NCBI GenBank assembly: GCA_965649765.1 | Contig: OZ287752.1 | Coordinates: forward strand, 17,422,001-17,486,000 | DNA: 64,000 nt | Direction of reading: 5' to 3' | Origin: Bispira polyomma | Taxonomy: Eukaryota | Shown here: positions 6,240 through 64,000 of the stretch, one piece after another | Layout: each line of letters starts with the position of its first letter | How positions within the stretch are numbered: position 1 is the first letter of the stretch | Notes under the pieces: model-generated | Database searches by the model: none | What the model saw: only the letters and a program-made list of their open reading frames with translations | Told to the model about the DNA's origin: nothing | Program-made: the position numbers and the translations under genes

Positions 6240-6410
6240 CAGGGGGGATAGCACTCAATGATAGGGGACCGCTATTTGTGGTGTGGGGGTATTGCAATGC
6301 ATTGACCAACTGTTCATATTTTGACAGCTGCCTTAAAATATAACGGAGCCCGAGCGATTTGCAGTTTTGGAAAAGCAGAACTCGACACACAGACTCATGT
6401 AAGTGGACAC

Positions 6411-13203: not shown

Positions 13204-14980
13204 CAATAGAAAGGGGTCAGTTGGTCACACTACAGACTGACCTCTCTCTATTGTCAGACTGTAGTGACTAGCTGACCCCTCTCTATTGTCAGACTATAGT
13301 AACCAGCTGGCATCTCTATTGTTAGACTGTAGTGACTGGCTGACCCCTCTATGTTGTCAGACTATAATGACGGGCTAACCCCTCTCTATTTTGGGACTAT
13401 AGTGACCGGCTAACCCCTCTCTATTGTTAAACTGTAATAACAGGCTGACTCCTCTCTATGGTCAGACTATAATGACTGGCTGACCCGTCTCTATGGTCAA
13501 ACTATAATGACAGGCTGACCCCTCTCTATTGTCAGACTATAGTGACTGACCGACCTCTATATTGTTAGACTTTAATGACTGGTTGACCTCTCTCTATTGT
13601 CAGACTATAGTGGCCGGCTGACCACTCTATTGTTAGACTGTAATGACCGGCTGACCCCTCTCTATGGTCAGACTATAATGACCAGCTGACCCCTCTCTAT
13701 GGTCCGACTATAATGCCCAGCTGACCCCTCTCTATTGTCAGACTATAATGACCGGCTGACCACTCTCTATTGTTAGACTGTAATGCCAGGCTGACCCCTC
13801 TCTATGGTCAATCTATAACGACCGACTCACCCCTCTCTATTGTCAAACTATAATGACTGGTTGACCCCTCTCTATTGTTAGATCCTAATGACAGGCTGAC
13901 CCTCTCTATTGTCAGACTATAATAACCTGCTGACCCCTCTCTATGGTCAGACTATAATGAGCAGCTCACCCCTCTCTATGGTCCGACTATAATGACTGGC
14001 TGATCCCTCTCTATGGTCAGACTATAATGAGCAGCTCACCCCTCTCTATGGTCCGACTATAATGACCGGCTGACCCCTCTCTATTGTTAGATCGTAATGA
14101 CAGGCTGACCCTCTCTATGGTCAAACTGTAGTGACCAGCTGATTCTTCTCTATTGTCAGACTGTAGCGACCAGCTGACCCCTCTCTATTGTTAAACTGTA
14201 ATGACCGGCTGACCCCTCTCTGTGGTCAGACTATAATGACTGGCTGACCCCTCTCTATGATCAAAATATAATGACCAGCTCACCCCTCTCTATGGTCAGA
14301 CTATAATGACCGGCTGACCCCTCTCTATTGTTAGACTATAATGACTGGCTGACCCCTCTCTATTGTTAGACTATAATGACTGGCTGACCCCTCTCTATGG
14401 TCAGACTATAATGACTGGCTGACCTCTCTCTATTGTCAGATTATAATGACTGGCTGACCCCTCTCTATTGTCAGACTATAATGACTGGCTGACCCCTCTC
14501 TATTGTCAGATTATAATGACTGGCTGACCCCTCTCTATTGTCAGACTATAATGACTGGCTGACCCCTCTCTATTGTCAGACTATAATGACCGGCTGACCC
14601 CTCTCTATGGTCAGACTATAATGACCGGCTGACCCCTCTCTATTGTTAGACTATAATGACCGGCTGACCCCTCTCTATTGTTAGACTGTAGTAACTGGCT
14701 GACCCCTCTCTATTGTCAGACTATAACGGCAGGCTGACCCCTCTCTATTGTTAGACTATAGTGACCGGTTGACCCCTTTCTATTGTCAGACTATAATGAC
14801 AGACTGACCCCTCTCTATTGTTAGACTGTAGTGAATGGCTGACCCCTCTCTATTGTCAGACTATAGTGACAGGCTCACCCTCTCTATTCTCAGACTGTCA
14901 TGACCGGCTGACCTCTCTCTATTGTCAGACGATAATGGCAGACAGACATCTCTATTGTTAGACTGTATTGACCGGCTGAC
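13204..14980. repeat. Intronic satellite, 35 bp unit TGACCGGCTGACCCCTCTCTATTGTCAGACTATAA, ~50 copies, first unit (13204-13241) inverted
   Basis: Direct inspection; most homogeneous at ~14300-14700. Confidence 0.97.
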
Positions 14981-31900: not shown

Positions 31901-31954
31901 TAATTCAATGGATTTGTTAACTGTAAAGCTGTTTGTTGTTTTTACTCTTTTGTA

Positions 31955-34900
31955 TAGCACGACCCAATAGGGGTCTGCTAATTCAGTTCACCCAACAGAA
32001 ATATTAACATCTACCTTAACCCCTAGCGAATAGGGGCATTACTATTATTTGGCTAGTATGTGACCATGCAGCCAATCAGAGACATTCCCCCCAAAAAAAG
32101 TTTAACCTTTGGGTATCATTGGGCATCCATATTGGAATAAGGAAGCAACAGATGAACACACGAAAAATTTTGCTAAGTTAATGAAAGCTCTGATTGCTTC
32201 CTTCGATTTTAGTATTTTAGTTTGTTTTTATTATACCATATATTTTATGTGTTCATTATATCAATATGGGGAGAACTCGTACTACTAAAACTCCAGCCAC
32301 AGACGGCAAGGCTAAGAAGTTGACATCAAAGAAAAGCACTACTAAAAGAATGGGTAAGAATAGCCATGTCTATGACAGCTTAGTTACCGACCTCAGTATC
32401 CCGTTCGTGCAGGCTTCACAGTATGCATCCACAGAAATGACTCAGATCCATGTTACCAGCCCTTCCGTGCGTGACAATAGTACATACCTGATGTTGTCCA
32501 TATTGAAACAGTTAGAAGAGTCAAACACGGCCTTGGGTTAAAGATTGGCCTGTGTAGAAGCAAGGGACGCGAGTATCCAGGTGTCGGCTTCAAACGCGCC
32601 TGAGCAGTGTACTGCTTCTCAATTACCCTCAACGAGCAGCATGCCAGTACTACCTATGGTAGCCTCGATGGGTCTTAACACAGGGCAGTCAGCAGCATGG
32701 TTTCACAGCATACTGCTCCTCAGTTTGCGTTGCCAGCAGGGACCAAGGCTCAGCTACCAGCACACACAGCCGGGGTGCACAGTGCTTCAACCTATAACTC
32801 AGACGGGATCATGCCGAAGACCGATATACTGCGGACACTCCCTGACGTTCAAACTATGTTGAATGAGAAACATGCCGAATACAACCTACAAGCTCAGGTG
32901 GCCTTCAGCCAAGGTAAGAACCCCTTACGTCAAAAATCAGGGAAGTTCAACGCCACATTCCCACAAGTAATCCCAAAGTAAGATGGTCGAATGAGGGGTG
33001 GACCGGTGGGTCCTTACGCAAGCGACCAATTTTTGACGATTAAACTCTACCACAGCGGGCGTCTGGCCAGTTGGCCAATGCACTGCAAGTCACGGACACC
33101 ACCATATCGAGAGAAATGATACAACAGGTTATTTTGGCACTTCGAGACGCATCTTCACTCCCCTGGGAGGTCATTAGGACAGCCTGGGCCACCAGTATGA
33201 CGGAGGTGGAAGAAGGAAGATTGGCGTGGGGTGATAGCACAGAGTGGGCTCTCAATCGCCTCAGCGCTTCGCAACTTGCTATGGCAAACTCTAAGGCCAC
33301 TAGCTCGACCCCTAGCACACATGGGGCTACAAAGATCTGCAAATTGTATAATTCGGGAAAGTGTTTACATAAGTCTGATCATGCTGGTTTCAAGTAAGTC
33401 TTTTGGCATTGTGCCACTGTTTTACACAAAGAAGTATACCATCCGAAGTTTAAATGTAACAAAGCTAATTCAGCCAAGCAGGCGGATCCGGCTCAGGTGT
33501 CTAACTGCTAGGACGTAGGACGACTACTAGGACAAGAAACTCAAGTTATTAACAGTAGGCTTAAGTTTAAAAGTAAAGCAGTAAAATTGGTAGATCAATT
33601 ATTAGTAGTTGAAAATGCAAATAAATTATGTAATGAAATGAAATGTGAACTGGCTGATAAATCACCAGTCAAAGCAGTAAATAACATGTTTAAAGCTAGT
33701 ATTGATATGAACTCGTTGGATAATATACCTGAACAGATTGTCAGTCGAATACCTGTTACAGAGATTAATGACAGGCTAGAATCAATATTAACTCGTTAAG
33801 TACAGCTAAGATACATGTAGCAAAAGGTACTAACTTGGAGAATTTAGTTAACACTGTATTTGACACCAAATGTGATTCTGATTGTGGTCATAATGACATC
33901 ACTAATGTAATGGGTACTGAGCTCTGGCAGTATAATGATGGGGTTAGAAAGGAGAACAGGGCTGTCACGCTCTGTAAGCACTAAGTCACTAGTAGTGATC
34001 TGTCTGGGTTTTCCCCAAACACAGAGTGCAGTAATGATACTGACGAGTACTTGGGTTGTTTTCAAAACACTGCTATGGGAAAGGGGAAGAAAGATTCCAG
34101 TGCGGTTGAATATAATTCTAACCATAGTATTTACACAGATAAACTGAACTCGAGTTATGAAAAGCATATCCAAACGGATAATTATACTGCTGGTGCAGGT
34201 AATTGTAACAACATGGAACTGGTTAAAAGTCATTACATAAGTTTAAATAATGTTGATAGTGACAAGCTTGGGTTTGGTAGCCCTGAGGGGCCTAATATAA
34301 AAATTGTTGTCTCTGTGACCAATTGGTTATATCACACACCAGAAAGACACCACAATTTAGTTGTGGCCCACATACAATGTGAACAGACAGAACTGTCTTA
34401 ATTTGATATTTTGGGGGACAATATTATAGGTCAATGTGACCAATATTTCAAATCTGACCATCCACCGGCAGGTTGCATCAACATCATTGAATGCTATACA
34501 ACTTGGGTTTATTCCCACCAACTACTGGTACACAGAGATAGCAATTATAGGGTCGAATTTGTTGACAAGGTTGACAAAAGGTACCAGACATTAATTGTAA
34601 GGATAAATATAATGTCAATTACACAGAACACATAATAGGTATCGACAAATTGTTACTAGATTTGAATGTTAATAAAGTTGATGTAGTCAGTAATGACAGA
34701 CCAGCAATGGTCAAGACAGTTAAACCCTGTCACAAAGATAAGGCAACGTTGTGTGACTTCTTTGAAAACTTTCAGAAAATTGATTTATATGACAACATTA
34801 GGCATGCTTACCCAGTAAGAGACGTCAACTTTCCCCATAAAACTAGAGGTTTCTTGACCACTTCAGAAACTGACTTTGAATTCATAGGCCCTGACAAGGC

Positions 34901-37340
34901 TCCAATACACATCACGTCTATACAATAAATGTCAGATATAGCAAACGTAATTAAGGACATGGAATGTCCTAACTATAGGAGGGCTAGAATTCCTTTGGTT
35001 TCAGGTTTAAACGTTCAAGCCTGGGAAGAGGTTTTAAGTGGTTATCCAGATAAATTACTCATCCAGTACATAAAATTTGGATTTCCTCTATCCCTACAAA
35101 ATCATGATAGTTTACAAGTTAAGGAAACAATTAATCACCATTTGACCCTCCAACATAAGGAAGCTATTGAGAAATATTTACATAAAGAGAAACAATGTGG
35201 AGCTATGTTAGGGCCTAGTCCAACAATAGACAGCAAACTGTTTCACTGCCCCCACTGCTCACCAGACCTAAAGATAAGGACAAAAGGCGTTTTATTTTAA
35301 ACCTTTCACATCCGCAAGACGGCTCGGTGAATGATAACGTCAACAAACTGAAATTTGACAGGTCGAAATTGTCTTGAAATTCCCCACTATAGACGACATT
35401 GTGGATCAAATTTGAATTTCAGACAATCCTAAGATTTTCAAGTTGGACGTGGCTTTGAATTTGAATTTGGATATTTAACGTCCACTCTATTACCTTTTAG
35501 TAGGTTATATTGGGACTGGTAGTTGGAAACGCTGGAAGAAACTCTGCATACAGTTGGTCAAGGTTCTGCAGAGAAACCAGCGGCCCACAGTAAGGAACTA
35601 CCACCTTTCCCACATAGGCATCGACGGAATTCGAACTCACGCCGCCCAGAGGTGAGAGACCAGTGATTATGAAGAGCAATGCTTGCTAACTACTAGGCCA
35701 CCGCGGCCCCAAGTTGGACATGGCACGCACGTTTCGAAACCTGAGGGTGGACCCAGTCGACGCCATGAAATTAGGCATTCATTTTGAGAATAACAAGTAT
35801 ATCGATCCTGCGGTTGCGTTCGGCTGGGTCCATGGCTCGGCGGTGTTTCAGCATTGCTCTGACGTCATAGCTCATACCTTAAACAAGAACAACCATAAGA
35901 TCTTCTGTTATATACACGACTATGTGGGCGTCTCAACTTCCGCCCAAGCAGATAAAGTGTTTGATGAACTAGTATGAATTAGTAACCCGTTTGGGTTTTC
36001 CTCTTAATCCAGAAAAAATTTCAAAACCTAGTTCATAAATTACCTGCCTTGGCATAAATATAGACATTGATGAAGGCACAATAAGTATTACACCAGATAA
36101 GATTAAAGAAACTCGAAAGAAACTAGAAGCAGTCGACAAAAGTTGGATATCACGCACAAAATTCAGTCGATACTCGGTAAGTTGCTTTACATACACAAAT
36201 GTTTTAAGCCTGCCAGTGTTTTCATCAACAGATTGTTAATGGCATTCAGAAACAACAGCGGAGCCAAACGTTATAAGGTTTCAGAAGATATGAAAGCGGA
36301 TTTACTTTGGTTTGTAAAATTTCTCCCGGAATATAACGGTATAACATATATTAAACCTGTAATTCAAAACCACGACAATGAGGTTTTTATAGATGCTTGC
36401 CTCACAGGCTTAGGTGCAATATATGCTAACCAAGTGTATGCCACACCATTTTTTAACATAATAGAAATCTTTCGATAGTGCATATAAAAATGCTTAGTAT
36501 TCTTCTCACGCTTAGGGTCTGGGGTGAGCAATGGAGCCATAAACGCATAGTCTTACACTGTGACATCATGGCTGTAGTCCTAGTAGTTAAGTCCAACAAA
36601 ACTAAGGATGAATTCTTGGCACTCTGTTTGAGAAACACTTGGTTAATTTCAGCAATTTATGACATCACTATTGATATCAGACATATTGAGGGGAAAAGAA
36701 CACTATAGCCGATTTGCTATCAAGGTTATTCTCTGACAACCCACCTCGCAAGGGTCAGATTAACATCATAAGGGACTCATGTACTTGACTGAACATTCCA
36801 TTGCATTATTTTAATCTAAGTCTTATCATATAATTACAGGTGAAAACCACGTCACTCAGAATTTCACAGCATCAGCATGGCAGAGAATTAACAGTGCCCT
36901 TCGTCCTAAGACCACAGCAACTTACAAGAACCAGTTTAGAACTTTCATTGCTTTTAACTGCTATGCTGGAATACAAACCATCACCACTCACTCTTTCATC
37001 TCTTTTCTATAGTATTTGATACAGACAGGTTCATCTGTGAACATGGTGAACAATTACATAGCTTCCATAAAACACATGGCTGCCAAATTCAACTGGGACA
37101 TTAGTATATTTCAGAATAACACTGTGGCTCTATTCACTAGAAGTCTAACACATACCTCCCCTTTCTCTCCCTCCCCAAAGGGGATTTTCCAAATTCACCA
37201 TTTGATACTTATACTTACTTATACTAGTTTTAGTTTGGCTTGGGTGTTTTTAAAAATTGTAAATTTTTAAAACATTTTCCTATTTTATCCCTACTTGTAC
37301 ATACATATCTGATTAACAATGTACAGAAAATAAATACCTC
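31955..37340 (+). mobile_element. Decayed PAT/Ngaro-like YR retrotransposon A (gag 32266-33500, RT/RH to 36833, truncated YR 36840-37200)
   Basis: gag EVEEGRLAWGD and C-terminal CKLYNSGKC..H zinc finger; PNYRRARIP, FGFPL, KLDxARxFRNL, FGWVHGS, CYIHDYVG, FIDACLTGLG, HIEGK; YR N-terminus ALRPKTTATY..FRTFIAF. Confidence 0.9.
35454..35710 (-). mobile_element. Full-length tRNA-derived SINE inserted in RT of element A
   Basis: Head ggggccgcggtggcctagtag (A box), B box gagttcgaattc, (CAAATT)n tail, 14 bp TSD aagttggac(g/a)tggc at 35440-35453 and 35711-35724. Confidence 0.92.
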
Positions 37341-38608
37341 AAACCTAGAATTATTTTATTAACTCAAATCTTATACTACTTAAACTGGAACTTATTATAA
37401 CCTTGACCTTCCCATTTCACCAATCAGAACTGGCTAAAAACAATTATACTCTATGCTCAATTTTCCCTACACTATATTGTATTTTGAATATGTTGTAAAA
37501 TACAATTAAACGAGTGATGACCAATACTTAGTATCATATACTTCCGTGACCTTAACCTAGTGATAAACCACTGGGGAAATTTTGACTTGTCTATCTATCA
37601 GTCTAAATTTTTGCTTGTCTTGTTCATCTCACATGAATAATGTTCAGACTATCCCCTAGATCAGGTGTTTGATGTTCACCAATAAAGTACCATATCAAAT
37701 TTCTTGTTATGTTCTCACTGGTATTTCAGGTCATGTTTCTTAAGATGTCGCCAACCCGGCAGTTGGTCCAATCATTACAAATGAGTTGTCATATAAAAAA
37801 TCTGAATTAGTTAACAAAACATCACTTGAGTCTTACGATGTTGGGGCCATCTTGAATTTGTGCATTTTTACAACACATAAACGAATCTAGACTGACTGAG
37901 GTTTAGTTTACACCAGACAATTTATATGATAAAATGTCAACTTTGTTGTTGTAGGTTAATATTTGACAGGGCATGTTAGGCTAACAGTAAATTAACTAAG
38001 GCTTGTATTTATTTGATTTTTTCAACCTAACCCTAACAAATGCTTCAATTTACAAGACTCTGTACAGAGGATTAAGAGGTTCCACTGCAACACATTTATA
38101 ATATCCTTGTTCTAAAACATATAATATGATATGTGGGCGTTTTGAGGATTTCGAGCCAGAAACAGTCAACATTTTTAATATTTACGATTATGTTGTGCCA
38201 AAATATTGCCAGGTTTTATACTGTAGATCCAAATATCATCTCAAATTTTATCACATCTTAAAATGTAAAGCATCATATCTCATTTAGTTGTATACCTAGT
38301 CTGGTATTCAAAAAGATTGTTACTTTTAAATTTTTGTATAAAAAAAAACCAGTTGACTGGTCCAACTGTCTAAAAAAAAGTAGTTGGTTGACACTAAGAA
38401 TTGCATTCTAATCGTTTGTAAATATGGTCCCAGGTATTTTATTGCACACACATTTTTATCTCAGTTCTGTCTGATTTTAGGGTTTAGTTTCTGCAGAGTC
38501 ACATATGTTGACAGAAATTGTGATACAGACAAATGTAGAATTTGAACAGAATTCAACTTTATATTACCTGTTATTCATATCCAAGTATAAACATAAGTCT
38601 TTCTTTAG

Positions 38609-39420
38609 ATACTACAGGACCACCAGGGGCTCTTAGAGATGTGTCAGCATTAACAGTGGCTGCAGAAAAGTCCAACATATCCCGGATTGTAGAACCCAGT
38701 GGAGGGAGTAGAAACACATTTAGAGTATTGTTCAAAGTCAAGAGTTACAATAAAAATAACTTTGTTGAAACAGACTATGCAAATCTAGACTATGAATCAG
38801 TGCTGTATTTTTAAATCATTCATCTGAATCCTGAAACAGAATATGAGATTGCAGTGTCGAGTATGAATGGTGACGATTCTGCAACAAGTAACTATATTAC
38901 AGTTACAACTATAGGTATGGCAATTGGAATTAATGTGGTACAATTATGTTTTTATTTAAATTGCTATTGGCATTACAAACATCCCTCTAGGAAGGGTATA
39001 GCTATGTCAATATTAATAAAACTAATGCAATTTTACAACAATATCAAATGTTTTAAAAGGCAGGACTAGATTGAGCACAAACCGTTTCTATATTAGTGCC
39101 CATTAGCGGTTTTCTCTAAAACATTGTATGTCAATACTTTTTTAGAAAAACCAGTGGAAAATCCAGATGACTTGGCAGTTGAAGTCAGTGGATCTGATGC
39201 TAAGATTACATGGAAATATCAAGTTTTAGATCCTACTCACATGTAACAATTGAACAGTGTACAATAGACGGAATATGTGTGGCAAACCAGGTGACATACA
39301 ACATAGATCGGACTTTGAAGGTTCCTGTGATAGATGAAGAAATCTTATACTTGATGATCTATCAGGATGGATTAGAATCTTACAGAAGTGAGAGGTTTGA
39401 TGCGATTACTGTACAACCTT
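38609..39420 (+). pseudogene. Two orphan FN3/FN3-like exons (38609-38914, 39146-39420), decayed paralog of the 51803-60464 receptor
   Basis: Phase-1 AG/GT boundaries; GPP..SRIV..TFRVLF..*IIHLNPETEYEIAV..VTT (in-frame TAA, conserved W replaced by R); second exon ITW..C....C..YLMIYQD with a frameshift, compare YLLIYQD at ~59270. Confidence 0.8.
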
Positions 39421-39699
39421 GTAAGTGTGACATTTGATATGAAAATATGCAATACTGTAGCCAAGGAATCTGACTATATTCTGACAAGGTTTTAATAAAT
39501 ACCCAGTTGATAATGTAATTTGTCCACAGAAGCTTGTAAATTTGTATGTCTAGTAAATTATTTTGTGATATTAATTTGTGTATGTTCTCGCTATGTATAA
39601 CTTTACTGTAGGGTTACCTTGGAGCCAGTTTTGTTTTAAATTAATGAATTCATTTCTGGTCAGGTTGAGAAAAACAAATTTATTCTTGATAACAAAAAT

Positions 39700-40660
39700 G
39701 GAAAAGATGGCAGGGACTGGAACACAAGTCCCAAAGTAATGTGGTTTTATGCCAAAAAATATACAACCCTCTGCTGTTGCCTGTAGTCTTCTCCGAAATG
39801 ACTTACGAAAATTTGAACAACAATACTGTCAAAAGGACAAGTACTAACATTAACAACTGTAACAAAAAAGTGGGCTTCATTGCTTTTTCTAGTACAGGTT
39901 TTGAATTTCAAGGCACAGACAGGCTTTCTGTAGATATTACTTCTGTAAGGGACATTCCAAAAATTGCTAAAATAATTAGGGGAACCGAAGTACCCAATTA
40001 TAGGGGAGCTAGGATCCCTATTAAGTCAGGCTTGAACTATAATGCTTTGGAAGAAATGCTGGAAAATTTTTCATAGATAAACTTCTCATACAATATATCA
40101 AATTTGGTTTCCCTCTTTTACTAAGCATTCCGTAACATGAGAGTGGATCCGTTTGACTCGATCAAACTTTGAATTAAATGGAAGGAGGGATTCTATGTGG
40201 ACCCCGCCATTGCGTTCAGGTGGGTACACAGCATTGCAGCCTTTCAAAGATACTCGGACGCAATCATATAAACGACTTAGTACTAAGTATTCGGATACAT
40301 TAACAACTATATTTGCGTTTCGGATAAATATAGGGCGCTGGAAGGTTTTGACAAACTCCACCACTACTTGAAGCTTGTTTGGAAGTGTTGGATAAACAGT
40401 ATATTTCCAAAAATAAATTCTAGTTGTTGCTGGGCAAACTGTTCTATGTCCATAAATGCACACATCCGGCTAGGATTTTTAGTAATAGACTGCTAGTGGA
40501 CTTCAGAGCAAATCATGGCAGTAACCATTTTAAAGTCTGATAGTATGAGAAATGACTTAAAATGGTTTGTAAAATTCATTAAGCAATTTAATGGTGTGAC
40601 ATATATAGACCAAAGTTTTACCCTGTTTGCAGACAAGCTGCACTAAGATGCATGCTTCAC
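39700..40660 (+). mobile_element. PAT/Ngaro-like YR retrotransposon fragment B (RT/RH, heavily deleted)
   Basis: FEFQGTDR..PNYRGARIPIKSGLN..IQYIKFGFPL, homologous to element A pol. Confidence 0.8.
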
Positions 40661-40679
40661 GGGGGGGGGGGTTTCACTG

Positions 40680-41075
40680 AGGTTTTCAGTTTCGCAGGGT
40701 CCAGTTTGACGTGAAGACTTATGTCCATTTTATAAATAAGTGGTTTTCTGCCTAATTTGGTTATTTTGTTTGTGATGTCATCGATTGTTTGCAACGTTAG
40801 TAAAAACTCTGTCCCCTGATATTGGTTCTGACATATAGCTGCATTCACTGATTACGCACCCAGAAAACTTAGATCAATGATGATCCGTCTGTGAGGGACC
40901 CTCGGCTTTTCTCTAGTCATAAAAGTTGCTTTTCCTCCTTCAAATATGTTTTAACGTCATCTGTGAATTCACACACCGAGTGATGATTTTGCTCTTTGTG
41001 GCTTAATTCGCAAGTTATGTCAAACTCTAATGGGAAGCCATATTGGATCAAATATGGCATCTGGGTGTCCAGTGT
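40680..41075 (-). mobile_element. YR-retrotransposon RT fragment (opposite strand)
   Basis: YGFPLEFD, NHHSV, RRIIIDLSF, TIDDIT..IYKMDIS..VKLDP. Confidence 0.75.
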
Positions 41076-43803
41076 TTATATTTAAGTTCTGATTGGACTA
41101 CAAATTGTTTATTCATAACATTACAATTCTTAATATGTTTTTTTATTTTGTTGTCTAATTGAAACGCTAGGCATTAGAAAATGGAGAGGTGGGTGTGGAA
41201 ATTTACAATGTCTATATATGTACCCTTCAACTTCTGGGTGTAAAATGGTGCCAGTGTAGGGGCCAAATTCACTAAATTATGCAGTACTAACTGGTGATTG
41301 GATCATAGGTTATGAGGGATGGACAGAAGGTAGAAACAAGAATAGTTTTTATAAATGGAGGAATGTTTAATTAGGAGCTTAGACAGCAGGCCCCTAACGG
41401 GGTTGTGCTAGTAACAGTTCCCAAAGTGGTGAAAGTTGATAGAACTAATACAATAAGAACTTGTATGACGTTTGAGGTATTTTATTCTATACAAGTTAGT
41501 ATATATATATAGGCGAGGTAAAAGGTATATTAAAATATCATAAAATATATAGGTTTTAAGATAAGCCCAAACCCAACTAAATTGAGGAAGGGACGATGGA
41601 AGAAAAGATGGAGGGAATGATGGAAGCAGCTTGAGAAGTGGACTGAAGGTAGGACCACACTGCAGAACTACACTAAAGACTGTGGGCTAAAGACTGATGT
41701 TTTGAAGAGAAACATTGTTGTTGAAAGCTGCTGTTGCACCAGATCTGCGGAAGGTATGAAACCGTGGAATGAGGGATCAATTCCAAGCTGCTGGAGAATT
41801 TGCCTAAGAACAGATCTGATGTGAAAATCAATTATGGGAAAGTTCGGTTTGTTGGCAAACACAAACAGAGCAGAATTGGGAGGCAAGTCCCTAGAATTTG
41901 AAAGTGCAGAGAGTGCCTGCACTGGACATAAGTGTGGAAAAGAAACCATAGAAGGCCACAAGGACGATGGATCTAAAGAGGAGGGGGTCCTGTAAGGTCT
42001 GACAGGACTGGGAAATGAGGGATAAGTGCTTGATTGTGAACAGGTCTTTTGGAGCAGGTCTGAATTGTGAACTATAGACCACAATCCGAATAAACAGTGA
42101 GATTGCATTGTGATGTAAAATATCTGGTATAATGTTATGTTTTAGAGTTATAAACTTCAACGCTGCCTGATAGTTCTTGATAACTTTTGGAGATAGGCCA
42201 TTCTGGGTCAAGTACTCCAGAAAGGCTAAAATTGCATGTATTGAAATGTCCTGCATGTTCACATACTGGAGAAAGGTTTACATGATTTGAGGGTCAGGAG
42301 GGTGTATGGAATATACACGCGACAACGCGTCAGCATATACATTGTCCTTACCCCTTATGTGATGAATCTTAATGGTGATGCCTTGTATATAACTAATAAG
42401 CCATATGTCGTGAATGCATGATGCAAGAAAAGGATCCTTGGTCTTACCGGTCGTAACGACCAGAACAACTGCCAAATTATCACAATTAAAAGTGACCTCA
42501 CGGTGAGTCCAGTTCTCACCCCAAACCCTAAGGGCAATAACTACATTGAGCATTTCAAGCTGAGTGATAGCAAATTTTTGACCAAAAATGTCAAGGACTG
42601 GTGTAAAATAAACTTCCTGACCCCAAAGGGCTCCCATATCCGTTAAACAGGCATCTAAATGAAGCTCATGTGAAAAATCAATGTTCTTAGGATTATAATA
42701 ATTAATGCCATTGTAGACATGTAAAAATTTAATGAACCAATCAAGGTTGTGTTCCATGTTGTTAGTGACTTTTAATCTCTTTGAGTCGGGAAAAGCTCTA
42801 AGTACAGCTAAAAGCCAATTAATGAAGCACCTTGCAGGTTTCACGCATTTTTGGATATAAAGGAGCGTACCTAACACTGACTGAAACCTAGTGCGAGATA
42901 ACCAGGATTTGCTACTGGCCTGAAGGCATTCTAGGTATATCTTTTCTTTGGCGATACTTATAATAGCTGCACAGATGTCCAAGTCTTTGTCCAGGTAAGA
43001 AACCTTAGTTCAGGGAGGAGAAATCTTACTAGGGTTCATGGGAGTACCCAAATCGTCCAATAATTTACATAATTTTTCAAAACTCTCCTTAGCCTTATAT
43101 TTGGGACATATACATAAATAATCATCTATGTAGCAATGAAGTCTAAAACCTAAACTCAGCATGTGATCGGCAATAAGGTCTGAGCATCTCTGGAAGGCTG
43201 AGCTACCATAAGCCTAGCCAAAACCCACTCCAGGGTCCAGATAGTATTCCCCATCCCATTTTATTCAAAATTTGAGGGCGTCGACAGAGTCAACATGGAG
43301 ATTATGAAAGGCCCTGGCCACATTCACCTTGACTTCCCAGGGATCCGTAGTTTTGTGTATGACGTCAGTGATGTGGTCAATGTTAGGGAATTTGAACCAA
43401 AAACCATCGAATTGGTCAAGAACATTATCATTGACCGACATGCCTCAATATACCCCGCCTATTGATAGCATCCTTGGGATTAGTGAATAGGGGGAACAGT
43501 GGTAATGTGAGCTCGCTATGCTGGAAACAGGGCCTAACATTGCCCCTTTGCTTTTCTCCTTATGAAAATATTTTTACCTGCATTAGTATATTGTGGAGCT
43601 GAGTGGTGATGTTAACTTGTTGTAATTGGTAAGGGTTACTTAAACAGAGGGGGAAGCCAAACTTAGAGATTGGCAAATTAACTGATCAGAGTGATTAAAT
43701 GTAATACGTTCCAATGCCGGAAAAATAAGGCCACAGCTAATGGGAATGCAAGCTTGCATATAATTTGGGAGACCTGTTGAATGTATGGTGTCCGCAATGA
43801 GAC

Positions 43804-44804
43804 TTTGAATTTGAATTTGGATATTTAACGTCCACTCTAGTACCTTTTAGTAGGTTATATTGGGACAGGTAGTTGGAAACGCTGGAGGAAACACTGCATA
43901 CAGTCGGTGTTACGGTCACGGGAGCAAGCACAGTAGCAATTACTGGTTGCTTTGAGGTTGTAACAGGAAAAGACAAAAAGTTTCACTTAACAAATTTATT
44001 TAACAAATAAAATAACAATTACAGAATTACAGTCAACCAAGATACTATTAATGGTTCATACAATAATACAATAATGAAACCAATCTGACCTGACCACAGT
44101 CCTGTCCACATAAATAACAATTAAACAAGTGTGTTCACTGTATCCAGCAATCTGTCTTGAAATCCGCTCGGTGTCCACAAACGCAAAATGTATATATCCA
44201 GAGAGTCTGCACAACTAAGCTATCCAGTCCAGGATGCAAACAATATCCAGTATGCAGTAAATCCAATCTCTGGTAGCTTCACAACTTTTATCTAGTTCAC
44301 TCCAATGAGTTCACCACAAAAACATATATAGTAATCAGTTTATATCCACAGGAAAAGAAATAAAATGTTTCACAGTATAGCAGTTCGTATAGCACACCAA
44401 CTCAATAAAATCTGGTCTGTGGCCAGGCTGTCAACCCTTATATATACAACTGCTAGAAAAGGTTGCTAGAATATGTGAACAATTGCTAGAATGTTCCGGA
44501 TTGAGATGTAAACAAATAAGGACAGCTTCAATAACAACAGAAACAAAATAGCAACAGCTTCTAGAAACATAGGGGTTTCCCCAAATATATAAATAGATAA
44601 CTCTAGCAGAGTGCTTTAACATACCACAATGTCCTTATATGTAACGGTCGGTCAAGGTTCTGCACTGAAACCAGCGGCCCTCAGTAAGGAACTACCACCT
44701 TTCCCACATAGGCATCGACAGGATTGGAACTCACGCCGCCCAGAGGTGAGAGACCAGTGATTGTGAAGTGCAATGCTTGCTAACCACTAGGCCACTGCGG
44801 CCCA
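43804..44804 (-). mobile_element. tRNA-derived SINE (same family as 35454-35710), interrupted by a solo LTR
   Basis: Near-identical to the 35454 copy on both sides of the insertion; TSD core gcaatgagac ending at 43803 and 44817. Confidence 0.92.
43908..44646 (-). mobile_element. Solo LTR (739 bp) of an LTR retrotransposon
   Basis: 5 bp TSD GTCGG (43903-7, 44647-51), inverted termini TGTTAC...GTAACG, minus-strand AATAAA near 43997 (orientation tentative). Confidence 0.8.
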
Positions 44805-47162
44805 CCTGCAATGAGACACATGTCTTTTATTGAATTAATAGCAATAAAGTCCCTATCAGGGCCAATGAACTGAAAACTGGTATCACGCCTCTTAATGAAG
44901 CCCACAACCTTATCTGGGTCAGAAAAGTATATAAAATTAGATTTGGAAGAAGAATCTACATTCAAGTCAGAGCTGTCCAGCTCATCAATGACAGCAGAGA
45001 TAGCAACGGAGCGACGCATGATTCTAGCTTCTGCATGTTCATTTGCAGGCCAAGTTTCTTTAGCTACATTATCAGTAATGACATTATCTGCCTTGATGAT
45101 GCCATCAATGAGATTCTGCATGTGAGCAGTATAATCATAGCCCCTGGAGTACAGGGAAGTAATATCATATGCTAATTTATTTGTCATATTTAGCATCATT
45201 ATTCTGAACAACATTATTTTGACATACGTTTGGAGAACTGTATTCCACATATATTTTACTGTTGAAAATGTGAGATACACAAAATAGAAAACTAGGAATA
45301 TCCGACAACAGAATGTAAGCAATGATTCCATTGATGCAATTTTGATAGAAACCTGAAGCACTAATATATTTAGGCAAATTTACAAACACAACAGGGTATT
45401 TAATCCGGTTGTTAACGTAAGAGAAGTCTAAAACTGAAATACTGCAAGCCATGTTCCAATAGTTACCCTATAAGGGTGCATTGTCAATGTCATTCGAAAT
45501 GACCCCACTATATATATCATAATGATCCCAAATTTCAAGTACATTATGAATCTCATGGTTTTCCGGACAAGCAGCATTAACATTTGAGACGTTCTCAGCT
45601 ATGTTACATACATTACACAATCGATTTTCTACAGTAGAAAACTGGTAATCAATAGGAAATTTATCACAAGTTTGACCGTCTGACAATTTACTTACACAAT
45701 TTGGTTTATTAAACATATTATTATCAGTATCACTGGAACAAAAGTCATCGTTACTTGACTGAAAATTACCATTAATTATTGAACTACTTGAAACAGTGTC
45801 TGTCCTGGGTCGCCGACCATCATCTTAGCTTGCTTTGACACTGTTCGCCTTAAGACATTTGAATTCAGGGTGGTTGTTTTCCCTATTCAAAAGCTTGAAA
45901 CAATGGGCACAATGATGCTTATATTGGTTGTGGTTTCCATTATGGCTGCAAGAGCAAAAGTTGAAGTACTTGCAGATTATCTTGGGTTTCTGCTATACCT
46001 GTTGCCTAGTATGACTGTTAGCCATAGCCAACTGAGATAAACTTAGTCAATTTAACGACCACTGTGTTACATTAGCCCAGTCAAGCCTACCCTCCTCCAC
46101 TTCCTGCATGTTGTGGCCCCATGCAGCTGTAACGGTGGAGAAAGGGAGGGAGTTGGCATCCCGAAATACATATATCATCTGATGTAACATGGATTTAATG
46201 GTGGTTATGTCCGAAACCTGAGCAATATTGGATGATTGCCCAGCAGCCCACTGAGGCATAGTAAGTTCATCGCACTGTAGTCTTTTGTGGGCAGTCCTCC
46301 CACCCAGCCCTCATTGGGCCATCTAGCAAGTGGTTCAGTAAGGCAAATGTCTGCTGAATTAAATCACCAAGATTTCTGTCTGAGGGGGGGGCTTACCTTG
46401 GGAGAGATCCTGTTGGTAACGCTGGTCATATGCTGCTAGGCGGAGGTTAACGGCCGCATTCTTGGAGATTCCTCAAGACATCGATCCGAGGTACACATCC
46501 GTCTCGCATGTAGTTGTTACTGGGCTGCATCTGACGTGTAGGATGTCCCTCGGGCAGTAGCATGTTGGCAAAACCAACCGTGGCCTGGGGTAGAAGACCT
46601 GCAAGATGCAAATCAGCTTTGGTATCATTGTGATAAGGGTTCTGTGGAGAACCTAGCGGTGTGGAGTTACAATAAGTCTCTACCCAGTCTAACCTTCTGC
46701 TTTTCTCGACGTTTGAGGACTCCAGACGTTGGAGAATGGCCATCATAGCACTGTGTTCCGGGGCCAAATTCACTAAATCATGCAGTAATAACTGGTGATT
46801 GGAACATAGGTAATGAGGGATGGACGGAAGGTAGAAACAAGAATAGTTTTTTACAAAGGGAGGAATGTATAATTAGGAACTGAGACAACAGGCCCCCTAA
46901 AGGGGTTGTGCTAGTAAATTCCTCCAAGGGAATATAACCAAGTTTACCATGGCTTTGACTATTCCATAGATTTCATTATTCTGTCTAATTGATGATTCGC
47001 ACCTAGACAAACTATTAACTCTGCACGACTTTTGTGCACTTAGACCAACCTCAGTGTAAGCTTTCGGTACGTCACCCTCACTTGATGTGGCATTTGACAT
47101 TACATTGTTTATATACATTGGTAGTTTATATACATTGGGGTCTCTATTACATTGAACTATGT

Positions 47163-47789: not shown

Positions 47790-50700
47790 TCTGGATGGTT
47801 TAGGTTTTTACCCAGAGCAGAGCAAGCAAGTAGGTTAAACACAGTCACCTGATCTATAGGCCAATCCATGAATGCAGCAAAGGCCAAATATACTCTGTAC
47901 ATGGCAGTATAACATGTAGCAGTAGATCTACAAAAAAACAGGTACAGTTTGTAGCAGTATAATAACTGTTGCACTGGTTTCTTATCTGGACAAACAAATC
48001 ACTACCAGGAAGACACTGACATATTGATACATTTTCATCAAGCAAAAAGTGATTTTCAGATACTGGGCACCACTGAGCCTGACCTACAAGAGGGCATTAT
48101 TTTTATTGGAGTTTGTCCGTCATTAGAGCAGGACAGCAGTTGTATTGTCGTAACCTAATATATAAATTACTTTCAGTTCAACATCAAAATGATTTGCCAA
48201 AAATATTATGTGATAACAAAGCCAATGCACTATCCCTTGTTTTGTCATTCGTGAGGACACTGACAACAACCTGGTTATCACATTTTGTGAGTACTTTTTG
48301 GTCCTGCCACTGTTTACCGCACAACTTTAAGAAACAAAAATGTTTAACATCTGCAAAGAAGCAATGTTCTGCTGCTGCATTCCAGCAGGTATTGGTAGTG
48401 AGTAAACTTGTTTTCCATAGATTTCCCCATGCCAGTAAGTCAAGCATCCAGCTCTATCATGACAGGACAATTTATCCTCTGGTATTGAGGTAATGAATTC
48501 AACCGTATCTATGACAATGCCAAGACAAGTCACCAGAGTCGCAGGAGGCTTATGCCATCGGTAATTCGCTGAAAGATAGCCAAGCCATGCTTGTAGCCAA
48601 AGGGCAGGGATACGTCTACGTAATACCCATCCCAATACAATCCGAACAAATTTATCTCTTTAGGATCTATGGTCACATGCCAGAAATCGCAGCCTATATC
48701 TGCCTTAAAAGTAAAAAACCCTGCTCAGCAAGCCCTGCAAGTCTATTATAACTCATCGGTTAATGGAGCTTGATTTGATCCTAACCATAAAAAGAAAGGT
48801 GTGTACAATTTCAATAGGGGGTACAGCAAACGGCCCATAATTACCTCCAATTAGCATTCTTCTTTAAGACATATGAGACACATGCTAAGGATACTTAGCA
48901 GCAGAGAAATGATTGTTAAGTTTAGACTTAAACTCATGTTCCTTATGACAGTCAAGGGGAAACCCAAACTTTATCAGTAGGGGAAGTTCCCAGTCCCAGT
49001 AACCCACTAGATACTTCGCCCACACAGGGGGATTAAGTTGTGTCACCACATGTACCTAGAGACCCCTATAATTAGGGTGACCATGCAGCCTGAGATATTT
49101 GTGCAGAGTGAAAACGTCCATTGGTAGCTTGTCATCAGAGTTGTCAATCACAGGGTCACCCCAATGGCTGAGTGGAATAAACCTGTACTTGCTACTATTC
49201 TGGACATCCCATAATTTTTAAGTTTCACAATTTTCAGCACCAAAAAGGCACCGTCTTTTGAAAGTACATTTGTACATGTCCAAAGCATATTTATCGTCAC
49301 AATTGATTAATTCAGTATTAGTCTGTTTTGGGTTGCGGGGTAAAACCTTTTCAAGGACTTGACCCCCTAAACTATGTCCCGTGTCACTAACACTCACTGC
49401 CTCCCCACAAGGTGTGTCCAAAGGAGCATACCTATTGTACAGAGGTAATTGAAATCCCACCTGTTCATTGTTATGGTTACCACTACCCGAGTTAATTGCT
49501 TTCATAGTTGAGAGCAATGGAGCACCAATCCTGACAAGAAAGGGGTTTTCCAGGGGGGGGGGGGGGGATTTACTGAATTGTGTTTGACACGTCCCCAAAC
49601 AATAGAAGTTCTTTTGTCTCACTTGACATCCCCCTTTCTGCTGGGCTAGTTGAGAGAAATAAAGGCTTGTTTACACTGCCATTTGGGACTTCTTTGTTTT
49701 TATCAAAAACCCTCATCCTTAAGAATATTTTGGTTCTAGCTTTAACAGGGTGCGCTAACATTTCACTCTCGCCCACAGTGGGTTTTATTGTGGAACTTTT
49801 AGAAACACTACCGGCCCCTTGTTTATCCTCGTCCCTGTAGGACCTTTTTACTTTTTTGTTAGTACATATAGAACCATTAAAACACGTTTTTTCACACAAT
49901 TAAAAATCTGTAAACTTAGAATTATATACTCTAGATAAGACTTTATCAGTCTGCATTTTCATAGCACTTTTGCAGTTGCCACTCATTTTTTTCGGGTAAA
50001 ATCTGTCAAATTTGTGGCCAATCTACATTTCTCTTAATAGGGGCTTCGGAGCCACCTCTCTGGGATTTGAATTTACCTCCAGTTAAATTGTTAAGCTACT
50101 GCAGTTGCAGCAGGCGTTGGTCAACCTGAGACTGTCTGCTTTTATTGGAACACAAAAAAATCGAGGGACGGTACAACGTCCTCAATTACTGGTTCAGTTT
50201 AAATGTCTACATGATTTGACTGAGTAGAAGTTCTACATGGTTACTGGCGCTAGGTAAGCACAGCGCCGCATCCTGTACGTGTTGGTCCATGCTATCCATT
50301 TTTTTTACTCATAGCCTGAAGCTGTTGTAGAATTTGTCCGGAGACACAATCCGAAATTTAGCATAGCCAACCGTGGGTACTTCATCGGTGATGCTGTTCG
50401 CCAGGCTAAAACTACACCGTGCTCTACTTGTTCATGTTTGTCCAGACATGCACTACACTGATATTCTTTCTTAGGCATAATTAAATAGACAGAAAATGAG
50501 GTTAAAAACAATATGTAGGGTAGTAAAAACCCCAATTGTGAAACACTCTTGATCTATCAAATGTTTAAAATTAATGATGGCACTTGGTGGGCGCCAAACC
50601 CTATTATACTTGCCATGTGACCTCAGGTGGCCTATTTGCCGTCTTTTTGTTCCCACCAAAAATATTTGCTAAAATGGTTGGTAGCCCCTTTTTTGTAGTG

Positions 50701-51802: not shown

Positions 51803-54800
51803 ATGTGTGGAAATTATCAGTACACAGTTTCAATAAGTAAATACATATAAATTGATATTTATAATGCAGTTATAAATGTATCAGTTATATAATGAATTTA
51901 TTAATTTACAACTGTTTACTTGCTATACGAAAGGAAACACATTAAAATTGACATGGATGAAATATTTAAAATTTATCACTACTAACAGTATAGAGATATA
52001 TAGCATGTAAACTTTGCACAAAAGTGTCTCAATACATGTAAACAACTTTACTTCTAGAATATTAATTAAACAACCTGTCACAATAAATCAACCCATTTTT
52101 TCATGTAGGTTTATATATAGATAAACACCAAGTGGAACTACATTATGTAAACTTAATGGTGTACGAGGGCCTTTAGTCCCACATACCCATTCAGTTTACT
52201 TAATTCAAGTGCCACGAGGTGTTTATTTATTATAAAACCCAACCCTACTAAAACAATATATTTCATTAAACATTGAAATTAAATTATATATGCTTGTTTT
52301 ACTTTATTAAATGTTAGAAAAACGCTACCACTATATTATTTTCTAATGCTACATGATTAGAAAATAATGTTGGGAGAGTTCAATAGCAATGCATACTGTA
52401 TAGGTTCTATGGGAAATATAGATTTATACCTGCCTTACGTATTTGAAACTTATGTTTGCAGTTTTGTCGCTTCTGTCTGTCATATTGACTGAAATCAGTG
52501 TGACAACTCGTTATGAATCTGACTACAGAGATGGGTCTACCTACTATGTACTGAATGGTGAGAGTATTACACTAGTTTGTGAATATGGACTCAGTGAAGC
52601 TGAAGTGTATGATGTTCGTTGGTATAACACTGAAGAGAGCCCTGAAGTAGTGCTCTTTATCAAAGCAGTTGTACCTGGTACTGAATTGCAAGGAACACCA
52701 TTAAAAAACAGGGGTGTCACTTGGACTTATACAGATACGTCACACAGACTAACTATACCTCAGGTGAACATTCTTACTGATGGATTTAGATACAGATGTC
52801 GCGTGGATGATGGTAAAGGACAAAGAGTGTCAAATAATAACCTGGACCTAAATAACATAATATATGGTAAGATAGTTTTATACCATTCACTATTCTTCCG
52901 TACATTTTATTTTAAAGTAGTTTACATATTGGCATGCGCCACATACTGGTGACTCTTGTAATGACAATGCAAGTGGTTTCATTGATTTTGTACACAAGTG
53001 AGAACTCACACCACTGCAAATGTTTGTTGACTTGAATGCTCCTGTTCTTTTTTTTTACAATATTTAGAACCACTCACATGTGAGGGAGGTAACAAATATA
53101 GTGGACAGACATTAAAAAATTACCTTAAATATATACAAATTCACTGGTTACATGACATACTCAAATTTCCCACAAGGTGGTTTTCACAGATTTATAAAAT
53201 CAGGAGAAACACGACAAGTATGGCTTATAAAAGAGTGAAAATCTACAAACGTTAATAAACAAAGAACAGAGTGTTGCGAAATGTACAACTGATTTTGTGT
53301 TATATATTTACTCATAGATTATATTATTTAATGACAAACTTTATAAATCTTTAAAAATTAATTTTCTAAATATATTTTTGACAGATAGTACGGTCAATAG
53401 TTAGATATGTTGTAATCAGTTTTTAAGCAGACAACTCAACTGTATCAAAGTATCTTTGGGTATTTGCGTAAGTTATTATAAGAAGGTATCAGAGTAGCCT
53501 TGGCACACAGAAAACGAAACATAATATATTTTCTAAAAATATACTACCATCAAAATGTGATAGCTTATTCCCATGTTTAGTTTTTAAAACAATAGTAAAA
53601 ACAGTTGTAAACACCTGATCTATTATTTGCCGTAGTACATTAACATATGAATGTTGTTATCATTCATTTCATCTGTTTGATAAACATATTATTTAATTTT
53701 GTACACGTTTTACTTTTTGCTATATTTCCAGATGCACCAGATTCCGTGACCCTTATCTCAATAGGTATTGTAATTGAGGGTGTAACCAAATCTATCCAGT
53801 GTAGAGTGTCCTCTATCTATCCAGGTAAAGAGGAGACAGACTTCAGAGTAAAAGTAGGGAGTGAGTACCAGAGTGGAGGTGTTGAGACAGGGAGTATGGA
53901 GAGTAATGGACTGACTTATACAGTGACTTACACACAGACACTGAGCTTTAACCATAGTCAGCAAGGTCAAAGAACACAGTGTGAACTGACGTGGGGTGAA
54001 GGACCCATAGAAGTAGTGAAAATATCTAACACTGAAACCTTGGATGTGTACTGTAAGTATAGAATGGGTGGATATATTATATATAAATACGTGACAGAAG
54101 AAGAATGATATCTGCATCGTAGAATAATGTTACTTGCACAAAGAATATGTGCATAAGTGTGTGTCTTTACTATATATATAAAATGCTGTAAGGATATTAT
54201 ATTTATCACAAATCTGTATTTCATGCAATGCCTAAGTATGTTTTCTATGAATATAGGTGACTGATTGTGTGTGATGAACACAAACTTAGTGGTGTAGAAT
54301 GCAGTCTAATTATTGCAGTATAAGATATTTTGAGTAAAAGTCAGTTTTATAGGTTTATCTTTTGGTCAAATATTTCTGCATGTTATGTAACTAATTTAAT
54401 TTTTTTTACTAAATGTAATTTGCTTCTGAATACTATACATTATTCAGATATCCCAACACCAGTAAGTAAACCTACAGCCTCTCTGTCCAATCCAGTGATT
54501 GAGAATTCCCTGTTAACCTTGACCTGTGAAGTAGACAGTAATCCTGCAGGTAGGCTGAGATTGTACAGACAGGGAGTAGGTACACATCTAGAACAGGTCA
54601 CAGCAAAAACACTAGAGTATCAACTCACTGTTGACAAAGATGATAATGGTGCCCAGTTTTACTGCAGAGCTGATGATCATAATATGTACTCAGGGTGGAC
54701 ATTTGATGTGGAGACTGAAAGGCTAAGGATTAGTGTATTGTGTAAGTTTGGTCTGTTCAAAATTTAAATTATACAGTATAACAGGAGTTACATACTGTGA

Positions 54801-61279: not shown

Positions 61280-64000
61280 GTGTGGGGGCTGTTACCCAAC
61301 GGGTCACTGTGCTTCAGTTCCTGGTCCACCCTAACTAAATATTATTTGTTTAAAGTCCTTTCTTGTGACACGCAAATTACCTCCTGTTTTGGAGATATTG
61401 AACCCCTGTTACAAATACTCGCAAGCCATTGGTCCCCCCCTTCTCTCTTGCTATTACAACTGTGGCAGCCATTATAAAAAAGTATTTGACAAGGGCACAC
61501 ACAAAATTGATGCCTAAACAAAATTATTTATTTCTCTGTGTTTAAAAGCTGGATCTAGCCGCTTTTTATATGCTTGTTTACTATTCTAACTGATTTTAGT
61601 ATTTACAAACTACATTTTAACTGTTTTAGTAAAACAAACAAGCACGTATACAATCTGTTGGACCCTTCTACAATTATAAAGATGGGGAGAAGGAAAGTTA
61701 CCAAAACTGCTGATAGTGTTGGGCAAGTTATGGACGATAGTGCTAGCAGTACAGGGGATGAGATTACTCAGCAACAGGTGAACCTTCGTATACTAGAGGA
61801 GCTGAAGACATTGGGTGAAAGAATTGGTTCTATTGAGCAGAAAGTGGAAGACAAGCAGCCTCAGGGAGCCTGCAGGGGACAGACGTCAGCCTTTGAACCC
61901 ACTGATGAAACCGTCATACTGACTGTACAAACTCTGAAGTTCTCGGCAACATTGCAAGCACAGGTCGATGCCAGATTGACTGAACTGCAGAAACTCAACT
62001 CACAGGACTTAACAGGTAGATTTAAGTCACAAAGGGGGGGTTCCATCGAGGTCCTTTGTAAAAAACAAGTAAAATGGCCAAACCACAAAATATTGGGAGG
62101 GTCTCAGAGAGATAGAGTTTCGTGTAACAATTTGACTGTTTTCCAATGGGTGGCTGGCTTTGTCCAAGCGGCCCAGGAGGAGTCTGATCCTAAGATCAGA
62201 AACATTATGTATGAATATTTAGGCGATCTCATGAAGGACACTCAAGACTTCTCCTGGCTCGCCGCCAAAGCCAGCCATGCTGTTCTACTCTGTAGAATGG
62301 AGGAAGGTCGGGTAACATGGACAGAGTCCAAATAATTAGACAGAAGTAGGAGGGCTAATGCCCAGAGGGTGGGAGTTAAGAAAAGTAGTCAAGATAGTAG
62401 TACCAAAACTAAAGATTTGCCTTGCAAATTCCACCAAAATGTCGGAAGTTCAAGGACCATGAGCACAATGACCAGCTTTATAGATACATCTGTGCCAGCT
62501 TTTATACTCAGAATAAGGAACATAACCACCCTAGTAAAGAATGTAGGTCGAAAAACAATCAATGGCATTCACAAAACGAGTAAGGCACTGCTTGGCAGTG
62601 CCTACACAGTATAAACAGTCCTTCAAAAAGGCAGACACACCTGTGTGGGGGGTAACTTTTGTTAATTCAAAATTTCATACTCAAACCCCAAAATCAGGGC
62701 AATGTAACACTGTCTTTAGTAAAAACACTAAACCCAAGATCTGGGATAAAGTTGGTACCATAAATGGCAGTACACGGTTTGGTAGTGCTAGGTATTGGTC
62801 CCAAGTGAAAAAAGTTGCAACATGTGTATCACATTGTGCACCTACGTTAGAACATAATAAAAACTTTCAAACAAGAGAGGTGGGCAAACATGAAAAATGT
62901 TTAGCTCCATATTATGCAAAAGATACTTCACTGGTTCACAGAACTAACAGGACCCTTTGCCCAATTAACTTTAATCAGGTGAACAGTGCCATTGTTGAAT
63001 CTAGTGAAATCACCCCAAGTATTGATGGCAAAACCCCAGTAGTTTACACAAGTCTCAGCAATACTGAATCACATATTAAATGCTTTGCCAGTGACAGCTG
63101 TGATATTACGCAGCATAAACAGGTGGATAACAACACAGGTATTGGTCATAATAGACAAAACAAGGGGGATTAAAAACAGAAGGTAAGCATTTCTGTCCAA
63201 AATAGCAACAGAAAAACTACAAACCTTACAGATAATACTCCCCTTAAAAACACGTGTTCCTTTGAAAATACAAGTGAATCATCCTGTACCCTTGATTTGG
63301 TCTTACCAAATGTAGAAACACAAATGGGTAAAACAAGAAAAAGATCAGTATGACAATAGTACAGATCCAAACACCATTTGGGATGTGAATTGGCATTCAA
63401 AATACAGTGGAAATTTGTTTCTAAAAAATAAACAAAAACAAAGGCTGGAACGAGCCAAGGGAGTTGTGAATTTGAATTATTCAAAAAACAACAAAATTTC
63501 ATGTTTGGGTTTATACCACTGTAAAATTAAGCACAAACCAAGTGGTGGTGAATCATATACCACCATATGTCATGATCCACTACTGGCTCACAAGATAGTC
63601 AAAGCGTCAGGTAAGCCCAACTTTATGGGGCTCGACTACCTGTGGCAAGTCAGCTGCACGTCACTGAGTGGCAAAAACGTTTAGTGGGTTATTGGGATTG
63701 GCAGCTCCTTGAATTTCTCAAATATGGGTTTCCATTAGATTTTTCAACAAATATTGACTTCGTCAGTGAAAGGGTTAACCACCCCTCTGCAGTACAATAT
63801 AAGGACCATGCAGAAGCATACTTGAAAGAAGAACTTAGTTTTGGTGCCATAATAGGCCCATTTGATGACTGTCCCATGCAAAACCTACAATTTTCACCCT
63901 TCCTTACTAGGACTAAACCTGACTCAGAAAAAATGTCACGTTATTATTGACCTGAGTTGGCCGGAAGGTCATTCAGTAAACGCTGGTGTTAGTAAAGATG
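61280..64000 (+). mobile_element. Decayed PAT/Ngaro-like YR retrotransposon E (gag ~61682-62583, pol start; runs off window)
   Basis: gag GRFKSQRGG..VKWP..QWVAGF..FSWLAAKASHAVLLCRMEEGRVTW, C-terminal Cys/His finger; pol GYWDWQLLEFLKYGFPLDF..NHPSA..FGAIIGPF..SPFLTR. Confidence 0.9.

Follow-up and report, generated by a model that had tools for sequence, protein, structure and literature searches.

A 64,000-nucleotide (nt) stretch of the Bispira polyomma genome (GenBank assembly GCA_965649765.1, contig OZ287752.1, forward-strand positions 17,422,001 to 17,486,000; hereafter the window, with positions counted from its first letter) contains remnants of Ngaro-type retrotransposons, which encode Gag, a reverse transcriptase (RT)/RNase H protein (Pol) and a tyrosine recombinase (YR), and which carry a splice donor in the middle of gag and a splice acceptor at the start of the YR gene. 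Element A (31951..37432, plus strand; delimited by blastn to natural relatives and a tblastn map) is a decayed copy, about 93-96% identical by blastn to its family relatives L038 and L034 (L-numbers denote natural copies collected for comparison). It begins with split direct repeat A1 (31951..32170, matching A1 and A2 of L038/L034) and ends with split direct repeat B (37241..37432, matching their B1/B2). Between these, on the same strand, lie the 5′ part of gag (32266..32913, from Met to base 1 of the donor Gly codon, the predicted coding exon 1), a phase-1 donor AAG/GTAAGA (32911..32919; the slash marks the junction) identified by conservation and ranking, a gag TAG stop (33509..33511) beyond which pol continues in the same frame in intact relatives, suggesting read-through, and a broken pol (33512..36833, by tblastn) with a variable N-terminus, RT and RNase H (Pfam RVT_1 and RVT_3 on intact relatives) and a TAA stop at 36831-36833. 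These are followed by an acceptor region (36815..36841), also identified by conservation and ending ttacag/GT, and by the 5′ part of the YR gene (36840..37212; Phage_int_SAM and Phage_integrase on intact relatives), the predicted exon 2, with one internal stop. The acceptor ends 6 nt past the pol TAA, with two bases between it and the YR codon grid (36842), and the first in-frame ATG past it is 67 codons in, at 37043. The predicted intron (32914..36839, plus strand) would remove the gag 3′ half and the whole of pol, 3926 nt from GTAAGA to TTACAG including a 256-nt foreign insertion, while the introns predicted in relatives measure 2.6-3.7 kb. Copy A is dead and unable to make a fusion protein itself, as its gag is interrupted by a stop at 32539-32541 and by a break of frame ahead of the donor, and it further carries the pol insertion, the YR stop and a deletion of the catalytic C-terminal half of YR after 37212.

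Three further copies share the donor. Element C has CAAG/GTAAGC (46391..46399, minus strand, intron start 46396) and, together with the pol/YR piece at 41631-43816 (element B), forms one interrupted copy (41631..46761, minus strand; gag 45834-46761, pol 42296-44917, YR 41631-42277), both halves of which match the L144/L145/L159 family and in which the pol-YR junction is deleted. The decayed element D has the donor GGAG/GTAAAT (50071..50079, minus strand, 50076) and, before a short decayed YR start with a weak profile match, the acceptor tttgtttgtccag/AT (47985..48000, minus strand, 47985). In element E the donor is ACAG/GTAGAT (62013..62021, plus strand, 62016), as in its relatives L051 and L052. 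An earlier sequence-only reading of this DNA had listed these four donors and the two acceptors of A and D, and all are present as described: every donor has its junction behind base 1 of one shared gag Gly codon, and both acceptors are in phase 1 to the YR frame. That reading also held that two copies keep the pol-YR junction, and the sites do exist in both; the acceptor of D is nevertheless weak evidence alone, because the element is in an advanced state of decay and the YR profile gives its YR only 13.4 bits. The repeat inserted in the pol of element A (35454..35709, seen as a gap in blastn to L038/L034) recurs in element B/C at 43803-43908 and 44644-44803, where it is split by a further repeat at about 43908-44645. 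Given that A is dead, C/B interrupted and D decayed, the window alone is suggestive only, and the idea was therefore tested on relatives.

The 1.04-Gb genome holds thousands of candidate relatives of the window elements, from which we selected by hand 120 longer natural stretches, looking in the match lists for extended open frames and a spread of scores. Intact copies carry gag, RT/RNase H and YR in this order on one strand in open reading frame (ORF) maps, with Pfam matches to RVT_1, the RNase H-like RVT_3, Phage_int_SAM and Phage_integrase, and their split direct repeats follow the order A1-ORFs-B1-A2-spacer-B2 with the internal repeats downstream of YR. In L044 these are A1 2491-2700, B1 7980-8191, A2 8191-8400 and B2 9208-9419, at 99.5-100% identity, and the same layout is found in L104 and L106-L110. 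The catalytic residues of YR (the invariant R153, H-x-F-R-R and the W-x-Y end) are kept in the alignment of natural copies. Ngaro elements, members of the order DIRS, are defined by ORF1 gag, ORF2 RT/RNase H, ORF3 YR and the repeat order A1-ORFs-B1A2-B2 in the relevant sections of PMC8547959, PMC4157794, PMC3266345 and PMC13465315, and by these published definitions the elements are Ngaro-type, the YR tree built here holding only the loci we collected; they differ from the Ngaro elements described in those sections by about 700 nt between A2 and B2. Of the earlier label "PAT/Ngaro-like", the second half stands. PAT shares split direct repeats and YR with these elements but encodes a methyltransferase, expected after RNase H, and no methylase family was found at E<=0.1 in four pol ORFs by Pfam, a search that did not cover the A2-B2 spacer; pol ends about 35 amino acids (aa) past the RNase H match, and that spacer has no ORF of at least 250 aa. 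A DIRS1-like assignment, which implies terminal repeats in inverted orientation along with an internal complementary region, was also rejected, the terminal repeats here being direct. The youngest family shows 99-100% identity in 40 of the 40 scored gag-probe matches listed. In contigs from three runs the two flanks of L108 (L108:2155-9078) meet, an empty site indicating polymorphism of this insertion and recent activity of the family. In L108 (G000:C5:12061513-12071512) the donor G is at 3150, the predicted intron spans 3151-6812 and exon 2 would start at 6813.

To place the donor column we used a gag-core profile, which gave 109 copies with at least 100 matched columns, grouped into 32 clusters at 80% identity with a median pairwise identity of 30%. 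The donor column is Gly in 30 of the 32 representatives (two single copies have TGT or GAT), and this Gly is encoded by GGT in 29/30, preceded by A in 28/30 and followed by A in 29/30, with all three features (A-G/GT-A) in 27/30. Control Gly codons in the same sequences are GGT in 77/241, with a preceding A in 66, a following A in 75 and the full pattern in only 9/241, while five other conserved gag Gly columns use all four codons. Synonymous choice at the donor Gly is thus not free, as the sequence-only reading required. Clustering at 70% gives the same picture (17/20 against 6/146 control Gly). Two of the three exceptions to the pattern are alignment slips, with AAG/GTAAAA at a nearby Gly (L128, L113), and the third reads AGG/GTAAGT. 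The earlier notion of a conserved Gly-Lys pair holds for the GGT codon but not for Lys: the residue before the Gly varies (Q, S, T, K, A), as does the one after it (K, R, N, T, M), while the bases stay constant, and the retention of A as first base after a variable residue strengthens the case for a splice donor. Codon choice further favors G at intron position +5, since a following Lys is AAG in 13/16 (81/226 elsewhere) and a following Thr is ACG in 6/6 (45/258 elsewhere), although the six Thr families are close kin. By a simple U1-match score, the donor is the best GT within 600 nt on either side in 18/28 and among the top three in 25/28.

The acceptor was approached with a YR profile that located a conserved RP motif independently of splice signals. 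From 135 sequences, 13 lacking the YR start and one with a low score were set aside, leaving 121 copies in 45 clusters (families) with a median identity of 31%. In 31 of the 45, RP is preceded at a distance of exactly 62 nt by the end of a YAG. When the YAG with the strongest pyrimidine tract is chosen without regard to phase, it falls in phase 1 in 39/45; acceptor phase is therefore not random across families. Control windows inside YR give a phase-1 best YAG in 90/192, so that a fair null is 47%, since coding frames favor phase-1 YAG, and the resulting binomial tail of 3e-8 is overstated because the families are related. Base counts at the acceptor, made on 38 representatives after manual placement of the site, give T at -6 and at -5 in 36/38 each, a free -4, C/T at -3 in 37/38 and a purine at +1 in 37/38. 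This is the usual base pattern of an animal 3′ splice site. A branch-like YTRAY lies upstream in 25/38 (58/219 control windows), and the YR alignment starts at the same column after the acceptor in 13/13 families. Together the two sites have the makings of a U2-type intron, with a GT donor and a YAG acceptor behind a T-rich tract, both conserved and of matching phase.

Both signals recur in other organisms. Ten metagenome-contig loci, whose YR is 31-40% identical and forms 9 clusters, show a phase-1, T-rich YAG in 9/9 lineages and the donor in both loci that reach gag, and the two signals span the deepest splits of the midpoint-rooted YR tree (of the loci collected here). Database YR proteins called from unspliced DNA offer a weak protein-level hint in the same direction, with an acceptor-compatible residue pair at the expected place in 56 of the 61 proteins long enough to cover it, against 324/1024 control windows. 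No relatives were found among viral contigs. The donor and acceptor sites are real, far beyond chance.

The YR frame largely lacks a start of its own, as had been claimed from two copies. Between the last upstream stop and RP there is no in-frame ATG in 29 of the 45 families; in 10/45 one lies downstream of the acceptor, at scattered places. The distance from the pol stop to the acceptor is 3 to 34 nt except in three metagenome loci (253, 312 and 783 nt), and it is 6 nt in 18/38 families. The spacers of 253-783 nt in these other organisms are non-coding (L113:3719-3975, L114:474-1260, L115:2335-2650). The frame relation of pol to YR is 0, 1 or 2 in 9, 26 and 3 of 38 representatives. In one copy, L155 (G000:C11:41433552 region), pol and YR share a single open frame of 1121 aa, a one-copy departure from a family in which a stop is normally present.

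These results support the spliced Gag-YR fusion that the sequence-only reading had proposed, as judged by start codons, codon choice and phase. A spliced mRNA that lacks about 3-3.9 kb, the gag 3′ half together with pol, very probably links the N-terminal half of Gag to the entire recombinase. That the two conserved sites are joined to each other is likely, a pairing that rests on phase and conservation because other splice-like sites lie inside the predicted intron. What we have, then, is a strongly supported reading of a real and deeply conserved feature in a known class of elements, from which we infer the mechanism of expression.

Several observations weigh against this interpretation. An in-frame ATG lies upstream of the acceptor in 8/45 YR families, and in the youngest family the TGA of pol is overlapped by an ATG, which might make stop-restart feasible in that family. 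The best YAG is not in phase 1 in 6/45 representatives; by inspection, a phase-1 YAG stands at -62 next to the selected one in three of these, and in the other three the acceptor or the codons after it look decayed. One representative uses AAG instead of YAG. Further GT sites resembling donors, and 7-14 copies of TTNYAG, lie in each predicted intron, and on a crude score the YR acceptor ranks first in only 3/8. The families are related, so the counts overstate independence. Finally, no Gag-YR fusion was found in protein databases: searches for "longer" proteins gave 2 and 3 proteins, all of them pol-YR frame fusions, none occurred in the best 150 of 13,406 representatives, and 272 fetched proteins held no gag-profile match. 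This blank is weak, because the protein sets look like calls on unspliced DNA. Among 43 genome loci aligned to full copies there were no spliced retrocopies, the top-40 match lists showed by eye no exon end adjacent to a YR start, and 300 exon-1 matches yielded by eye no open frame of 450-590 aa, with two 595-aa frames located at a tandem gag duplication. The donor-acceptor join was not among the 15 joints listed, of 29, in genomic-DNA-like contigs of three runs, which is not evidence either way.

Among the alternatives, the one that survives best accepts both splice sites but not their simple joining, invoking another donor, an internal exon or a mainly regulatory splice that limits full-length RNA. 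The several other donor-like and acceptor-like sites in each element speak for it, but no other donor or acceptor position is common across families (upstream of RT, no offset occurs in more than 4/22), the Gly of F-x-F-x-GPDR is preceded by a TAG-type context in only 7/17, the two conserved sites share a phase and YR needs an upstream ATG; we consider it unlikely. A second conserved acceptor serving pol was likewise rejected on the offsets upstream of RT. It is still less probable that full-length RNA is the template for YR translation, through stop-restart, a frameshift or read-through at the end of pol, with the AG incidental. Such a route would fit the 6-nt spacing in 18/38 families, the overlapping ATG of the youngest family, three single database proteins with pol and YR in one frame, and fungal Ngaro elements, whose YR is given in the pertinent part of PMC3783388 as in frame or frameshifted relative to RT-RNase H, yet each of the three frame relations is represented, the gap can be as long as 783 nt, 29/45 families lack an in-frame ATG and the gag donor is left unexplained. 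That conserved protein sequence and AT-rich codon usage produce the signals as a side effect is hardly credible and largely refuted by the codon and phase tests, for although the donor lies within a conserved Gly and coding frames favor phase-1 YAG (90/192 control windows), the fixed bases are synonymous positions that stay while flanking residues vary, the residue following the acceptor varies as well (G, D, E, A), and the bases preceding it fall past the pol stop.

Under the spliced-fusion model, one transcript would give three products, namely Gag, Gag-Pol and a spliced Gag(N)-YR. The unspliced RNA would serve as genome and as mRNA for Gag and Gag-Pol, the latter made by TAG read-through in A-like families or by a -1 frameshift at A AAA AAC in E-like families, while a subgenomic spliced mRNA would encode the Gag N-terminal half followed by the complete tyrosine recombinase. 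The two gag-pol routes are inferred from 71 copies with an intact gag end, of which 36 show one stop only, pol staying open in that frame, and 14 carry A AAA AAC/T and are open in the -1 frame. Both recoding styles occur in sister clades, a single TAG (L044:4035-4037, L108:3756-3758, window 33509-33511) against A AAA AAC with a strong hairpin after it in L062 (2125-2190, -24.9 kcal/mol).

The Gag part before the donor measures 134-321 aa in copies with open frames and comprises a zinc-finger-like or basic tip, a coil-like helix, a linker and short helices, so that the predicted fusion is about 460-650 aa, without the Gag core and the C-terminal zinc-finger-like region. An AlphaFold model of one Gag from a 20-sequence alignment (mean pLDDT 69.6, pTM 0.42) predicts a long helix (44-73), a disordered linker, helices 133-138 and 140-159, a helical domain (181-281) and an end rich in Cys/His; residue 160, directly past helix 140-159, is the donor Gly. 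Foldseek gave no match for the Gag fold at E<=0.001, and the highest VIA Z was 5.1. The Gag N-terminal part would guide the recombinase either into the Gag particle or towards its target, and recruitment of YR to the particle by this shared half is probably its role. A wider proposal, that the fusion is the ancestral and obligatory recombinase route of animal Ngaro elements, with the Gag-derived half both loading the particle and steering target choice and with three routes per transcript, is plausible but in our estimation falls somewhat short of an even chance.

Elsewhere in the window, two more pol fragments from different Ngaro families stand head to head at 39693-40706 (plus strand) and 40690-41167 (minus strand), and the region is a dense nest of Ngaro remains. 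Several Ngaro fragments sit between exon-like frames of host gene(s) with Ig- and FN3-like sequence (38600-39420 and 52422-59364, plus strand; judged by eye alone). Tandem repeat arrays occupy 13205-14760, 1110-1384, 1988-2614 and 3460-4155, with units of 35, 25, 31 and about 147 nt.

Expression of a 3′ gene from a subgenomic spliced RNA is familiar from retroviral env mRNA and foamy-virus pol mRNA. Those retroviral donors usually lie upstream of most of gag, so that no large Gag part is fused, whereas the donor here lies mid-gag. The analogy to retroviral and copia splicing drawn in the sequence-only reading fits best on its retroviral side, where the closest precedent is the SD′ RNA of murine leukemia virus (MLV) rather than copia gag splicing. 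In the part of PMC10496198 that treats this RNA, a gag-internal donor and a downstream acceptor yield P50/P60, the Gag N-terminus fused to integrase sequence; P50 is described there as an accessory protein with the last 116 aa of a DDE integrase, while the predicted product here contains a whole tyrosine recombinase and would apparently be its only route. Plant Ty1/Copia elements, according to PMC5580714, undergo conserved alternative splicing of their own genomic RNA to give a short gag RNA that sets protein ratios. There, splicing and early termination make Gag alone, whereas splicing here would make the integration enzyme.

The Ngaro literature, in the sections drawn on here, treats YR as a separate ORF and gives no splice route or Gag-YR fusion, whereas the present elements show splice signals. 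No report of a spliced Gag-YR was found in the literature on Ngaro/DIRS, two key reviews and Repbase lying beyond that search, and none is described in the relevant portions of PMC7192593, PMC6681497, PMC4157794, PMC3783388, PMC8547959, PMC9341512, PMC12477816, PMC3266345, PMC4495291, PMC13465315 and bioRxiv 10.64898/2026.05.21.726589. These portions leave unanswered how the third Ngaro ORF is translated, and the conserved splice offers a candidate answer. If correct, it would explain how a recombinase gene without its own start codon is expressed and how an integration enzyme outside Gag-Pol enters the particle, and it would add, beside MLV SD′, a second retroelement in which a gag-internal donor feeds an integration gene. 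ORF1 governs Ngaro target preference in Cafeteria, as stated in the corresponding section of PMC8547959, and a Gag-derived half on the recombinase would be a candidate mechanism for this, the link to that different lineage being our suggestion. For a repeat class that is very abundant in these animals, the annotation would be corrected, and the protein to study would be one of about 460-650 aa with the Gag N-terminal half rather than the 330-aa free recombinase.

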